This document shows, in pieces, positions 23,936-32,759 of a DNA stretch of 64,000 nt (position 1 is its first letter; every line of letters begins with the position of its first letter). This stretch comes from Octopus vulgaris (Eukaryota), in contig OX597826.1 of assembly GCA_951406725.2 (NCBI GenBank), positions 36,890,001 to 36,954,000 on the forward strand, in the 5' to 3' direction. A model generated the notes under the pieces. The model did not search any database. It worked only from the letters and a program-made list of their open reading frames with translations, and was not told where the DNA came from. The position numbers and the translations under genes were made by a program.

Positions 23936-24875
23936 AAAAAGGGACTCACACAAAGACATACTTCTTTCTTCCTGAGTTCAACAATTCCTACTTACTTCTA
24001 TTTCCTGAATTTTATATGTGAATTTCACCCGGAGAAATATATCGAAGTCTATTGGAATTAATCACGTGGTGTTTTTCTTCTTTTGAATGCCTTTGACAAC
24101 AATATCAGAGCGATTCATCTTAGTCACGCTGTTTGGAAGAATCAATATGTCCTAGAGTTTTCTTGCATTGTCATTCACTGAGATCGCTTATACTCGTATA
24201 CGTTCAGACCATTTTCTCTGAATATTTCATAACCCTGGTGTAATAACAAGTGTATATCAGCTCTAACTCTATCGCTCTATCGTATCAGTTGATGTATTCA
24301 CTGTTGGTTTGTTATGGGCGGCCAGACAATGGCATTCATTGGCTTTCTGATCCCCTCATAGTTTGCAATAACGGATTGTATTCGGCTGGAATATTTGATT
24401 TTAATAATTTCTGGCGAGAATTCTTTGGATTGGTACTGCAATAAAACAGATATACTCTGATGTCAGTATTGAATTAGTTTCAAATCAAAGAATATCTTGG
24501 TTTGTCATTCCAGCTTTTTTAAGCTGCAGAAATTCTCCTGGACTTTATGCTTTAGTAAATGCTACGGAACACAAGTTTACCGATCACCCACAAAAAGTTT
24601 GCAGTTCACTATTTCCCTTACTTCAATAATTTCCATGTCCGTGCATACGACCTTGGCTCTTATTCTGGCTTCATCGCTCCTTTTGGTAACACGTGATTTT
24701 CTCTTACTGGGTTTCTTTTAATTCTCCTCTCCAAGCTAACATAGAAGTAACGGGTTTTTCACATTAGTTCTTACATTTAAAAGGTGTGACTGCACTATAT
24801 GGCGCCAGAATCATCTGACGCAGATATGATATATATATATGTATATATATATACATATGCATATATATATGTATA

Positions 24876-25280
24876 CTCTCTTTAATCTTTTACTCTTTTA
24901 CTTGTTTCAGTCATTTGACTGCGGCCATGCTGGAGCACCGCCTTTAGTCGAGCAAATCGACCCCGGGACTTATTCTTTGTAAGCCCAGTACTTATTCTAT
25001 CGGCCTCTTTTGTCGAACCGCTAAGTGACGGGGACATAAACGCACCAGCATCGGTTGTCAAGCAATGCTAGGGAGACAAACACAGGCACACAAACACATA
25101 TATATATACATTTATACGACGGGCTTCTTTCAGTTTCCGTCTACCAAATCCACTCACAAGGCATTGGTCGGCCCGGGGCGATAGCAGAAGACACTTGGCC
25201 AAGATGCCACGCAGTGGGACTGAACCCGGAACCATATGGTTGGTAAACAAGCTACTTACCACACAGCCACTCCTGCGCCT
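24876..25280 (-). mobile_element. tRNA-headed SINE family B, full length
   Basis: Minus-strand head ggcgcaggagtggctgtgtggtaagtagcttgtttaccaaccatatggttccgggttcagtccc (A and B boxes), central gccttgtgagtggatttggtagacggaaactgaaagaagccc, internal TA/TG microsatellite and tail ...gactgaaacaagtaaaaga. Homologous to 28073-28443 and 57399-58385. Confidence 0.88.
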
Positions 25281-25281
25281 C

Positions 25282-25332
<51 letters not shown>

Positions 25333-25355
25333 GATATGTATATATATATACATAC

Positions 25356-25402
<47 letters not shown>

Positions 25403-25434
25403 TGTGTGTATATGTGTGTGAGCGTATATGTGTT

Positions 25435-26529
25435 GGGAGGTGACGTGAGGTTGTCGCCCCTCAAAGGGATTATGGTGCGGATGGAGAGAAAAACGATCAC
25501 CTATAAGTGGTTCTCGTTAAAAGGAAAAAAGGCCGAGCAGGTGGAAGTTAAAACAGTAAAGGCGCTAAAGGTACGGTCAAAGGAAGTGACATATATAACC
25601 AAAGGAAGGAGATATGAGACGAGGGTCGTCCAATTTAGGACAGGAGAGGAGGCGAGGAGGCTGGCGAGTGTGGCGGTGAAAACAGAGGCAGTAGTGCTTC
25701 TGCCCACATACCTTGAAAGAAAGACTTCCAACGTAAGGGTAAAAACAATCCCACCTGATATAGAAGTGGCTTGGGTGACGCCGGCTGTCCTTGTTGGAAG
25801 TGAAAAGAAAGTGGCTGCCTTCGAGCCACAGAGACGGGGAAGGAGGTTGGAAAGGGAAGACATTGGAATTGATTATACAGACGAAAGAGGAACAACTGGA
25901 GTGTTTGGCAGAGACGGTGACGTTGGGGGGAATTGTGCTGAGAGTGTGGGTAGAGGGCAGGGTACCACGTTATTTTAAATGTGGCCAAAAGGGCCACATT
26001 GGAGCGTACTGCTCTCTGCAGAGGACAATAGCAGAGGAAACAGTTGTAGAGACGGAAGAGAAAAGAGAAGAAGAAAAGACAGAGGGAGGAAAGGAAGAAA
26101 AGGAGAAAGAATGGAGAATAACAGAGTAGAAGGAAGAAGAGAAAAAAGAACACTGAGTGTGATGTGGTACCCCAGTCCTACTCTATCCCATCCAAGACCA
26201 CTCAGACCCACCCTCCCCGTACAGACACCAAACCCACCCACTCCATTTCCCAACAGGAAAAAAAGTAAAAAAAGGAGCAGACACCCCAGAATTTAGAAGA
26301 GGCAGCGAGTGGTGTTGCTCAGTGTGGGGTGAGTAGCACTCTCTTCATATTTTCATTTTCAACTCTCACGCATGTTATCATAATTCTAATTTGTTTTTCA
26401 AGTTCATTTTCATGTCATTCATAACACCATATGTTATTTTTGTATATTTTTAATTATTATATGTCCCCACATGTGTTGTACTGTCCCTTCTATGTAAAGC
26501 CTTTATGGCTCATTTGACGAAATAAAGAA
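25435..26529 (+). mobile_element. ORF1/gag-only non-autonomous retroelement, copy 1 (frameshifted, 5'-truncated)
   Basis: Broken ORF ...VQFRTGEEARRLASVAVKTEAVVLLPTYLERKTSNVRVKTIPPD...VWVEGRVPRYFKCGQKGHIGAYC, with a decayed CX2CX4HX4C at 25971-26012. Followed by an E/K-rich then P/T-rich tail and a T-rich 3' UTR ending AATAAAGAA. No RT or endonuclease sequence. Confidence 0.7.
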
Positions 26530-26540
26530 GCTTGCTTCCC

Positions 26541-28072
26541 GAAGTTTTTGTCGGATGTGTTTGTTTCGCTGCTGGTAAGCATTTTTGCTGTTGCTGAAAA
26601 CGTTGGATTACCATTTGGAATTGTTATTGTTATTTGTTGAACGTTAAAGTTTGTTGTTGAGCATTGTTGAATTATTTCCCGGCTTTACCGAGCAATAACA
26701 AACGGAGAAGGAATTGTTGACCAGTATTTGTTGACCATTGTGGCATTTTATGAACGTTGTTTTGTCAAACTGTGTATAGTCTTTTGGACTAATTTTTGTG
26801 CCCATCCCCCTAACGCGGGTGGGATTTGGAGTTTGTTAGTGAACTGTTGTCCTCTTCAAGAGGAAAATTTTCATTTCCCATTTTTGTCGGAAACTATTTA
26901 ATTTGTGTAATTAACTTGTAAAATTAATTTCAGCCGAAGAATGTCGGTTGAAATTATACATGAGAGGTGTGTTCTGGTAGAGAGCAAGCAAGAAAATGTG
27001 AAAAAGTTTTCGGTGGTTGCCGTGGTGGCAACCGAAAATATCGACATTCCTGTCGATCAGCTGGAAGGTGTATTTAAAAGAATGAAAGTGGAGGGCGATG
27101 ACGTTAAAATATCACCCTATTCCAGTGTGGTCGACACAGAAAACCGGACTGTAGTGTTTAAATCCTTCTGCTCACAAAACAGAAGGTTTCAACACTTCGA
27201 GAAAGAGAAAATTGTAAAATGCCTATTCGCTATATGGAAAGACGTAGCCTATATTGCAAGGGTACGGGCATACAGTACAGTTGAGGTCCGTTTTTCTAGT
27301 GGAAAGGTGGCCCGCGGGCATTCCGTGTGTCCCTTGAAGACAAAGGAAGTGTTACTTCTATCAACATACATGGGAAGGCAGACTTTCCGTGTGAAGGTGA
27401 GAGAAGTACCACCGGAGTGTGATCCGAAGGAGGTGGTGACCGCCTTTTGTTTAACAGGACGGACCGTATAAAATTCTTGCAAATTACATGCTCTGCCCTC
27501 CAGAACTGGGTACCAGCGGAGCATTACAGCAATTGTATAGGAGACGCAGGCAGGAATACCTTCAGGAGGTTTCCGAAAGGGTGGTCGTGGGAGAGAATGT
27601 GGCCCTTAGAGTGCAGGTGGAAGAAAGAAAACCCACCTGCTATGAATGTAGGAAAAAGGGCCTCATTCGCGTGGACTGTGAAACAAGGAAAAAAAGAAAA
27701 GGAAAAGATGAAAAAAATGGCTCAGACACCAGCTCCTTCAGAAAACCCTAAAATTGTCCCCAAACCTGCGCATATACCAGACCCTACACAAGTAAAACTT
27801 ACCACTCCCCCACCAGGTAAGGGAGGTCGCGTTAAGGAGTAAAGGTTCAAACCAGATGGCCGGGTGCCTTTCTTTCAACGCTCCTCATTGTGGAACGCAA
27901 TGACCTACTCAAAATGAAAAATTTTTATTGCATATTTCATCGATTCATTTTTTCATCCAATTGATTTGACATTTTTAAAAGGTAAAAAGATTCTTCACAC
28001 TTTATGTTTGTCTGTCCTTTTTTTGTCCCCTCTCTGGAATGCCTGTATGGCAAATCTATATGAAATATAGAA
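26541..28072 (+). mobile_element. ORF1/gag-only non-autonomous retroelement, copy 2 (apparently full length, frameshifted)
   Basis: 400-nt leader, ATG at 26941, then ...VRFSSGKVARGHSVCPLKTKEVLLLSTYMGRQTFRVKVREVPPE...VQVEERKPTCYECRKKGLIRVDC (knuckle 27638-27679). K-rich and P-rich tail, 3' UTR ending GAAATATAGAA. Flanked by imperfect direct repeats agaagcttgcttccc / agaagcttacttacc. Confidence 0.72.
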
Positions 28073-28443
28073 GCTTACTTACCACCCACGTGATTCCGGG
28101 TTCAGTCCTATTGCGAGACACCTTGGGTAAGTGTCTTATACTATAACCTCAGGCCGACCAAGAAAGAAGCCTGTTGTATATACATATATATATACATGTT
28201 TTTTGTGAGTGTGCTTGTGTGCGTGTCTGTCTGTCTGTCAGTATTTGTCCCCACCACCATCACTTGACAACCGATGTTGGTGTGTTTACGTGTGTTTCGG
28301 TTCCTGTAACAAAAGGGATGGAAACAATAAGTACTAGGCTTACAAAGAATAAGTCCAGGGGGCGATTTCTTCGACTAAAACCCTTTAAAGCGGTGATCCA
28401 GCATGGCCGCAGTCAAATCACCGAAACAATTAAAAGAAAAAAA
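28073..28443 (+). mobile_element. SINE family B copy lacking the first ~25 nt of its head
   Basis: Starts gcttacttaccacccacgtgattccgggttcagtcc and continues to the ...cagcatggccgcagtcaaat...aaaaga tail. Confidence 0.8.
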
Positions 28444-29874
28444 GAATACATATTAGATGTGACATAATATCAGCATAAGAGGTTGTTAGTTGACTCGTGA
28501 GTGCAACTGGTGACACACACACACACGCACACACACACACATGCCACTAATATATGTAAGTATATATGTCTGTATATATGTGATTGTGTATGTATGTATA
28601 TTTTGAAATTCCGTTTAGGCTTAGCAATACGAATAGCCTGGTGTTAGAACTCAATATACATAGGCCTCGGAAAGAAGCGCCAGACGAGTACAACGCTTTG
28701 TAATAATGGCTTCATTCTAACATTGATACAGCTGCAGTAACAAATGCACAAACACTCACATGTACATTTATGCATGTGTGTGTGCGTGCATGTGTGCTTG
28801 CGTATGTGTGTTTGTGTGTGTCTGTGTGCATACGTAGTTTTATTTGTATGCGGGCGGATAAGTGTGTACATATAAGGCTGCGTATGTACACGTTGAAAAC
28901 TTCGTCTTGAAAAAGATTGGAAGAAACATTACATTCTTTAGACAAATATTTTAAAGACAATTTTTGCTGAGAATATAGCCATTGGTTAGTTATATATTAT
29001 ATATAAAAAAAAACTTTCTTACCTGTTTTGTCGCTAACAAACTAGCCTCAGGGCAAACTCAAGTTGAAAGAATATAACATCATTATGTGAGTCTGTATGT
29101 GTGTGGCATTTTGTGTTGTCCATGTGAGTGTGTGTCTTTATGTGCGCTTGCATATATGTGTGTCTCTTTGTGTATGAGTGTGTGTATGTGTGTGTGTGTC
29201 TTTATAATTCTATTTATTTCATTTGATTTCCTTCATAGCCTTTGTTCTTAGCAGTTTTTGTTGAATGTTCATTCTTTTGTATTTGCAGCCTCCAAACGTA
29301 TCAATAAAAAAAACATTACACGAAAACAAGAAAATAACAAACACCGTTGTCCCCAAAATTCCCTTTTATTATACCAAATTCCTCTCTCACAAATGGATTG
29401 TTTCCTGTTTAATTTTGTAACAATAGCCCTAAATAACATGCTTTGAATGAAGCAAAGAAAGAAAGAATAAAAGAATAAGGTAGAAGAAGAAAAATACACA
29501 AAAAACACCTTTTCACAGAAATTATGAAAGCAATGTGATTATACGCTTTTGTATAATTCGTCAGTTATAATACAATATTTCATCATATTGTTGTAACACA
29601 AAAAATATTGATTCTAATAAAACTGATTCTTCATGCAAGTAAATGAAAACTCTTTTTTAATGGAATATAAAACAGAAATGAACTTATGAAAGAAAACAGC
29701 CTAACAGAAATTTTGCAATAAAATAATATAATCAAAGTTGATATGAATCTTTTGAATTGCGCAAGTTCTCATTATTTGGTCAACCAATGTTAATAATGGT
29801 TGCTATCTCTGCATATTTTAACATACAGACTAAAATATCATTTATTTTATTTAAATAAATGAAGATGATGATAA

Positions 29875-31693: not shown

Positions 31694-31852
31694 CTCTCTA
31701 TATATACACAAACACACACACACAAACACACACACATACATATATATATAAATATATATCAATATATGTATCACTATATCTATATATATATATATATGTA
31801 TCTATTTATCTATTTATTTATTTCTCTATCATCTATCTGTTTATATATATAT
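31549..31852 (+). repeat. (TATC)n, (CA)n and (TA)n compound microsatellite
   Basis: Direct inspection. Confidence 0.95.
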
Positions 31853-32476
31853 CTTATGTCGAACGACTTCTATTGCGTGTGGGACGAGTCTGTTTATCAA
31901 CCGAGTCTATCGTGAATATTATCGCGCCTCTTTTCTTGAAACGGGAAGGGAAAGCCGTTTTCATCGTACTTGTGAATATGGCGAAAGAATGTGTATGGTG
32001 GACGCGTCTGAAAGGTCTAGAAACAAACACTTTACTCTCTGGTAAATCTCACATCAGAGAAAGGTGAGAGTAGATAGGGAAGGTTTGTCTAGTGTATGTT
32101 TCAAAAATAGATGGGTGAATGCAGCAAGGATGGCACGTGTGAATGACGGAGCCACATTGAGCATAATCGTATGAACCAGAAAAAGAAAGGGAAAAAGAGT
32201 CACTGTAATGTGTTTTTGCATGACATTATTGCCCGAGGTTACCGTGGTCTTTTCCGTGGGCTTTTCTTTCAACGAATAAACCCAGTCTGCTTCCCATTTC
32301 ACACTATGACATTTCTGTGGTACACGATCCCTATTGATTGGCTTCCCCCCTTTTTTCGCGATCCCTTTTGATCGAAATTCTACCGCTCTTTATTTTCTTC
32401 CTTCCTTCCCAAAAACAAATGCTCGACTTCGTATTTTGTCCCCCTGTGTTCAGCCCTGCGTGGCCAATAAAGAAAT
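31853..32476 (+). mobile_element. Tx1/L1-like LINE, ORF2 C-terminus and 3' UTR
   Basis: YVERLLLRVGRV...VFIVLVNMAKECVWWTRLKG...RKVRVDRE...FKNRWVNAARM* fits the AKxxIWxxR...FxxxW end of Tx1/L1 ORF2. Pyrimidine-rich UTR ends AATAAAGAA. (TATC)n on both sides. Confidence 0.65.
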
Positions 32477-32759
32477 CTATCTATCTATTTATTTATTTAT
32501 CTATCTATTTATCCATCTATTTATTTATCTATCTATTTATCTATATCTTCATCTATCTATCTATCTATTTATTTATCTATCTATATATTTATCTATTTAT
32601 TTATCTATCTATATATTTATCTATTCTATTTATCTATCTATTTAGCTATCAATCTTTCTATTTATGTATTTATCTATCTATCTGTCTGTCTATCTATATA
32701 TTTATATGTCTGTCTGTCTGTTTATCTATCTATGTGTGTGTGTGTATACATGATGATGT

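Follow-up and report, generated by a model that had tools for sequence, protein, structure and literature searches.

An ORF1-only element and an internally deleted two-ORF LINE at one position of a tRNA-like SINE head in Octopus vulgaris

Several long interspersed elements (LINEs) of the Tx1 group are inserted at set positions of other transposons, namely Tx1L in Tx1D (Xenopus), the crocodilian Tx1-Mar in Mariner-N4_AMi, where SINEU elements are passengers, Tx1-8_Crp and Tx1-4_AMi in long terminal repeat (LTR) elements and Tx1-9_AMi in Harbingers, and tandem copies around a 16-bp duplicate have been described among them (Kojima, 2015, PMC4494074). Derivatives with only the first open reading frame (ORF1) were reported from the L1, Jockey and CR1 clades only (Kojima, 2018, PMC5786205), the examples being HAL1 (defined in PMC5753468), HeT-A and Ag-Sponge, which consist of a 5' untranslated region (UTR), ORF1 and a 3' UTR, have no ORF2 and need an autonomous partner. 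In the present analysis, a 64,000-nucleotide stretch of the 2.8-Gb Octopus vulgaris genome (C13:36,890,001-36,954,000, hereafter the window) was examined, in which two elements, E1 and E2, lie in tandem in the tRNA-like head of a short interspersed element (SINE). With a probability of roughly 0.85, E1 belongs, as a damaged copy, to a genuine ORF1-only family (family A) and E2 is a privately deleted copy of a two-ORF LINE, both at one SINE-head site and likely inserted by the endonuclease and reverse transcriptase (RT) of that LINE.

The octopus system resembles the Tx1 cases in that a LINE of the L1 group occupies a set position in an abundant transposon, with duplications of ~16 bp, tandem insertions enclosing a duplicate and non-autonomous passengers on the same target (PMC4494074); it differs from them in its octopus host, in having a tRNA-like SINE head as target and in passengers that encode an ORF1 protein (ORF1p). 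E1 shares the organisation of HAL1, HeT-A and Ag-Sponge; unlike these, its family encodes an ORF1p with RNA recognition motif (RRM) folds and a CCHC knuckle, inserts specifically into a SINE and is an old radiation (synonymous divergence, dS, about 1). HAL1 proper was rejected for E1 on account of the octopus host and of the knuckle, which marks Type I and not the Type II ORF1p (Transposase_22) of mammalian L1. No report of a SINE-targeting Tx1 element or of an ORF1-only Tx1-type family was found in the literature covered, outside which lay subscription journals and Repbase. A 2026 study of O. vulgaris repeats gives 13 recently active L1-Tx1 families, and the words target, nested and non-autonomous are not used in the portion of its text examined (PMC13282606); the families described here may already be catalogued in Repbase or in the supplements of PMC13282606 or PMC4494074.

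The two elements and their families

Locus labels such as L001 denote genomic stretches that were fetched by similarity searches and then parsed. For E1, the whole element, its ORF1 core and its 3' UTR were used as queries and the best 40 of 978, 238 and 235 candidates, respectively, were scored, so that a total of 64 distinct family-A loci was examined. Fifty-three of these extend to the 3' UTR (51 of them from inside ORF1) and 11 end in ORF1; none of the 64 holds ORF2 inside the element, the ORF2 matches near L010, L011, L014 and L122 all lying outside it. Full length is ~1.45 kb (about 1.43-1.48 kb), as represented by 28 complete copies, all but 2 of which measure 1.31-1.48 kb, with the order SINE head, target, element, target, SINE body. 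The target stands directly 3' of 48 of the 52 intact 3' ends and directly 5' of 48 of the 52 5' ends, and since the same fuzzy match was present in only 127 of 5000 random 50-nt windows, this adjacency is not due to chance. One subfamily (L121, L124, L126, L129, L220) carries an extra 11-nt piece of the target after the full duplicate.

An intact ORF1 frame of 408 residues is retained in L214, to which the ORF1 remnant of E1 aligns in two pieces with 61% and 37% identity. The predicted fold of L214 residues 1-270 (predicted local distance difference test score 81) contains two alpha/beta domains ahead of the knuckle. Tandem-RRM proteins occupied the top rows of a Foldseek search with this model (19 with E up to 0.001); with VIA, a match to a La RRM was obtained with Z 9.3 and a root-mean-square deviation of 2.6 over 80 residues and, for the second domain, to ACT-like folds with Z 7.8. 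The listed fold matches did not include L1 ORF1p. Family-A ORF1p is accordingly modelled as two predicted RRM-like domains followed by a CCHC knuckle. Over the ORF1 core, ratios of nonsynonymous to synonymous divergence (dN/dS) of 0.15-0.27 were obtained in 8 family-A pairs (dS up to 1.3) and of 0.12-0.18 in 3 pairs of autonomous LINEs, and family-A ORF1 is under purifying selection. A protein search with the family-A core returned just two proteins, from Octopus sinensis and O. bimaculoides, and identity to the ORF1p of the LINEs found was 32-35%. Dispersed copies, common ends, absence of ORF2 and an ORF1 kept functional together place E1 in an ORF1-only family, for which the many ORF2-less copies with common ends and target-enriched flanks that the first-pass annotation had named as support were indeed found.

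E2 belongs to another family. The ORF1 remnants of E1 and E2 are homologous, as had been noticed (35% identity over 99 residues, E 3e-17), and at the DNA level their similarity is nearly nil (34 bp), so that a single family comprising both could not be maintained. In an ORF1 tree, the E1 family groups with a sister ORF1-only group that has other targets (support 91/93), apart from the E2 family; when the number of ORF2 losses was considered, a branch with support 80/81 had every ORF1-only row on the same side. Identities to the nearest relatives overlap, at 86-90% for E1 and 84-91% for E2 among the best 40 candidates per search.

ORF2 was found downstream of ORF1 in 24 of the 29 other loci fetched with E2 and upstream of the 3' UTR in 26 of 28 distinct loci found by the E2 3' UTR. 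The sequence missing from E2 amounts to ~4 kb, from mid-ORF1 to the last two ORF2 codons and stop; where E2 skips ahead, its closest relatives run on into ORF2, the junction was spanned by the window copy alone among 4 candidates, and other relatives (L066, L067, L069, L070, L074) have different deletions. Splicing was rejected as the cause, the lost part beginning with AC and finishing with GG. The loss of the 5' end of E1 and of ORF2 from E2 are likely later deletions. In the first-pass annotation both elements had been taken as ORF1-only and E2 as passing straight from ORF1 into a 3' UTR. Both quoted ORF peptides are present, and both copies lack ORF2, a tblastn search of the window with full ORF2 having matched only 31810-32049; the ORF1-only assignment stands for E1 and fails for E2, in which mid-ORF1 is joined to the end of ORF2 at a CA microhomology and whose relatives carry ORF2, the finding that the annotation itself had equated with a private deletion. 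The single knuckle ascribed to each element is degenerate in both (Table 1), that of E1 scoring just E 0.11 with Pfam, and no Pfam match above cut-off was obtained for the window fragments.

The ORF2 of L079 encodes 1140 residues with matches to Exo_endo_phos (E 1e-11), RVT_1 (E 9e-29) and zf-RVT (E 1e-8); its best solved relative is human L1 ORF2p (E 7e-66; R2, E 8e-22), and the best named RT relative is from Argonauta (64%). The ORF1p of this family is of Type I (RRM + CCHC; types as in PMC5203782), with zf-CCHC above cut-off in L073, L076 and L079, and it aligns to the family-A model, in which RRM folds are predicted. No named Tx1 reference occurred among the 120 RT matches listed or the clusters examined; the Tx1 label fits the predicted anatomy, namely apurinic/apyrimidinic-type endonuclease (APE), RT, zinc finger, Type I ORF1p and site specificity. 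Complete copies of 5.2-5.9 kb have the target at both boundaries and the target follows 20 of 25 LINE 3' ends, as befits sequence-specific insertion with target duplication.

Table 1. Features of the tandem insertion and of the empty SINE copy; positions are those of the window.
Feature	Position	Strand	Remarks
Empty SINE, same family	24876..25279	-	uninterrupted target 25243-25257
E1, family A copy	25435..26524	+	first 261 bp and upstream SINE head gone
E1 ORF1 remnant	25435..26336	+	frameshift near 25807-25839, plus stops
E1 zinc knuckle	25971..26012	+	Tyr in place of first Cys
E1 3' UTR	26337..26524	+	no poly(A) tail
E1 terminal hairpin AGCC-N5-GGCT	26498-26510	+	family form TGCC-N5-GGCA
Duplicated target between E1 and E2	26525..26540	+	
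E2, internally deleted two-ORF L1/Tx1-type LINE	26541..28067	+	intact 5' end
E2 ORF1 remnant starting at ATG	26941..27812	+	
E2 knuckle	27638-27679	+	His lost
E2 deletion junction	27811..27820	+	CA microhomology 27811-27812, then last two ORF2 codons and stop
E2 3' UTR	27821..28067	+	
E2 target-complement copy	27987-27995	+	one mismatch
E2 hairpin TGCC-N5-GGCA	28040-28052	+	
Second target copy	28068..28083	+	decayed
Remainder of host SINE, B box onward	28084..28448	+	inverted arms I1-I3 versus the 24876-25279 copy

Having lost the SINE head along with its initial 261 bp, E1 has no 5' duplicate at this locus; it also has a private deletion of ~88 bp at AGA 26298-26300. As a separate observation, ORFs of several families stop within G/GTRAGT (26328-26336 and 27815-27822; ORF1 or ORF2 ends of L055-L058, L078 and L199), which agrees with the 5' splice-site consensus and also resembles the target GGTAAGT.

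Target site, its duplication and the RNA 3' end

The head of the host repeat is colinear with the tRNA-Glu and tRNA-Lys genes of the genome (z up to 7.1, a score reached by 0 of 300 shuffles). To judge by this tRNA-homologous head with A and B boxes and by its high copy number, the repeat is a tRNA-derived SINE; three octopus tRNA-SINEs are cited in PMC4758252. ARAGORN found no tRNA across the window, and Rfam returned microsatellite noise only for 24500-29000. The target begins directly after the D-loop GG of the head, between the two boxes, and its repeated full form is AAG(A/T)AGCTTGCT(T/A)(A/C)C(C), 15-16 bp. The exact 33-mer across the empty site is present 58,747 times in the genome and the junction of AAATA with the target 1,445 times, the reversed controls giving 0 each. 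The single position in a tRNA-like SINE head proposed by the first-pass annotation is thereby borne out by the 48 of 52 family-A 3' ends, as is its view that the flanking sequence is target and not element, given the 58,747 empty sites and private target mutations at both ends. The sequences quoted after each element, GCTTGCTTCCC at 26530 and gcttacttacc at 28073, and the inverted empty SINE are all present; the shared stretch is longer than quoted at both places (Table 1), and because the second target copy begins at 28068 the SINE resumes there rather than at 28073. The AAGAA that had been suggested as a separate priming microhomology was rejected as such, since the duplicated target itself begins with these five bases, although an RNA running through into the target AAGAA could anneal there.

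Of 65 parsed intervals, 10 had false ends, 1 was a duplicate locus and 1 contained two elements; with these 12 removed, 53 remained, and 25 of them represent single insertions between SINE head and body. Target position 4, which is A or T depending on the SINE subfamily, is the same at both ends in 24 of these 25, and positions 13-14 are the same in 15. Private target mutations are doubled in L005/L087, L165 and L218 and, being at both ends, indicate a true target duplication. The 5' junctions of the young LINE have TAAC in 19 of 20 cases, including those in which the 3' copy and the downstream SINE are of the TTAC subfamily (L078, L231, L233), and in the 5' duplicate the right-hand end often tracks the element subfamily. 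From these patterned mismatches it is inferred that the RNA start lies within the upstream duplicate, the right end of which is templated by the RNA. G at SINE position 16 was also seen after six insertions of different families (L078, L130, L156, L220, L231, L233) and in 2 of 32 empty sites, reflecting a possible preference or a junction effect.

At the SINE site, every family terminates in a short hairpin followed by AAATA and lacks poly(A), the final bases of both family A and the LINE being GAAATA. The hairpin TGCC/GGCA is present in 77 of 91 parsed ends, with paired (double) changes in L016, L079, E1 and L025. Autonomous LINEs additionally carry AGCT(A/T)CTT at ~80 nt from the end; of the 36 ends that have A or T there, 35 are complementary to the target at the variable base (the tally having 38 rows, two of which are one G-type locus counted twice). 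Annealing of RNA to target is described for R2Ol (PMC6530143) and SART1Bm (PMC7265360), and co-transcription for R2 (PMC4494074); target-like sequence at the RNA ends that aids insertion and transcription from flanking target would be common to the R2 and R1/SART type and the octopus elements, and unlike in those, the octopus motif is internal, 80 nt from the 3' end, and complements the top strand instead of copying it by read-through. It pairs with read-through target in predicted folds, the whole-fold z-scores of the 3' ends being weak (-0.07 to -1.83). The A/T match amounts to only two or three switches on the tree, with the turnover of SINE subfamilies over time as a confounder. All 56 family-A ends lack the motif, and since 35 of them lie at A-type sites, 20 at T-type sites and 1 at another, it is not essential for targeting. 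A bolder account is offered as a doubtful possibility only: LINE targeting would be partly RNA-guided, a 9-nt 3' UTR motif pairing with the SINE top strand at priming and its base being switched with SINE turnover, while an old, independent and guide-less ORF1-only clan would ride the same enzyme, rewrite part of its landing site with its RNA leader and have changed hosts, among two SINE heads and another repeat.

Proposed mechanism and competing explanations

In the proposed mechanism, the LINE endonuclease would nick the bottom strand at GGT/AAG, and ORF2p would hold the shared 3' hairpin and copy the RNA by target-primed reverse transcription. ORF1-only RNAs would borrow ORF2p in trans and yet require their own ORF1p, which would account for the purifying selection on family-A ORF1. 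Transcripts would begin within the upstream duplicate, so that the cDNA end would anneal to the cut target and overwrite the right-hand bases of the 5' duplicate. Every insertion leaves two usable target copies. The two-ORF LINE of the E2 family, which uses the same site, is the probable helper of family A, a role suggested by the shared hairpin, end and target.

Several observations weigh against the interpretation preferred here. The putative trans-mobilisation of family A is read from shared ends and target. As only the best 40 candidates were scored (of 978 for E1), a rare family-A member with ORF2 may have been missed; the pairs for dN/dS were picked for open frames, and one pair from a related ORF1-only group gave 0.55; and 5 of the 29 E2 relatives show no ORF2, being truncated or deleted. 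Seven young LINE copies are 2.0% diverged and their SINE flanks 2.1%, against 3.3% for empty SINEs of the subfamily, and the identities of element and flank correlate across ten young LINE copies (rho 0.66); with divergence equal, joint movement of SINE and LINE is possible for those copies. Extended to all elements, this would make them passengers, with SINE head, element and SINE body moving as one and the apparent targeting reflecting few founders, a scenario into which the window E1 would also fit, lying without head and 5' end beside a microsatellite like a 5'-truncated composite. However, in family A the identities of element and flank are uncorrelated (rho 0.02, 18 copies), one subfamily occupies both A-type and T-type SINEs, neighbours in chains differ, private target mutations are duplicated, and at least five families plus copies of a second SINE share the site, so that passenger movement as a general explanation is considered unlikely.

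That both E1 and E2 belong to ORF1-only families has in its favour that neither window copy has ORF2 and that other ORF1-only families, of ~1.97 and 2.2 kb, lie at the same site, but it is the least credible of the alternatives, almost to the point of dismissal, when E2 relatives continue into ORF2, the 3' UTR is preceded by ORF2 in nearly all loci, the E2 junction is single-copy and retains the last ORF2 codons, and other relatives carry different deletions. Nor is it at all probable that the true target is a small-RNA gene such as a tRNA, with the SINE struck only by resemblance. Tx1 families do target U2, 5S and similar genes (PMC4494074), and the SINE head is colinear with tRNA genes as noted; however, none of 30 tRNA genes examined (9 anticodon types) holds the target within 4 substitutions, the flanks seen were SINE head, SINE body or another element only, and the LINE 3' UTR complement matches SINE subfamily variants.

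Other elements at the site and significance

A wider survey comprised a protein search and 40 fetched stretches. Further ORF1-only families were found at the SINE site, of ~1.97 kb, with 5 complete copies, and of ~2.2 kb, with 3, together with mixed chains of ORF1-only families, family A and LINE (L214, L216, L248, L249). Contigs of three presumed-RNA runs and one run of uncertain kind partly cover a young copy, one contig extending from the SINE head into ORF1; with neither starts nor strand visible, they were not used as evidence.

Head-to-tail arrays of a 1,674-bp ORF1-only unit were seen on three contigs (C8:9.60-9.63 Mb, C10:47.67-47.70 Mb and C1:142.95 Mb; L191-L196), the units being 97-100% identical and many having an intact ORF1 of ~440 residues; the arrays are mixed with related families and start in a common AT-rich repeat. 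Head-to-tail chains are also formed by HeT-A. In L206 (C22:41.99-42.00 Mb) and at the end of the L201 array, the head of a second abundant SINE holds a related ORF1-only element, which lies just behind the D-loop GG, at the corresponding position, and has a duplication of ~15-18 bp; an Octopus sinensis protein is near-identical to the ORF1 of L206. The tail of this second SINE is similar to the 3' end of the LINEs described here, and its copies occur at the SINE-head site of E1 and E2 or directly before these elements (5' flanks of L030 and L116; L036, L044, L221), much as SINEU accompanies Tx1-Mar (PMC4494074). A second autonomous lineage ends a sister-group array (L198:7528-9900; ORF1 34% to family A, ORF2 50% to L079) and may be the helper of the sister group. 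In the window itself, 31860-32480 is a 3' fragment of another LINE in the group of E2 (45% to the ORF2 C-terminus) with a similar tail, embedded in a (TATC)n microsatellite, and similar LINE tails precede (ATCT)n in L197; the fragment suggests a sibling LINE family with a microsatellite as target.

Tx1 LINEs in other transposons and ORF1-only LINEs are already known and, each ingredient having a precedent, the surprise is moderate. The targeting of transposons by LINEs is here extended to a SINE, which offers tens of thousands of harmless sites; insertion between the A and B boxes would likely silence the SINE copy concerned. The compact endonuclease-RT, which prefers a 15-bp site and may be aided by an RNA complement, is a candidate for site-specific insertion work. 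Several natural ORF1-only lineages, some young and intact, have an ORF1p conserved like that of the autonomous LINEs though only about one third identical to it, which makes testable the old question of whether ORF1p acts in cis on its own RNA or becomes part of the particle of a partner.

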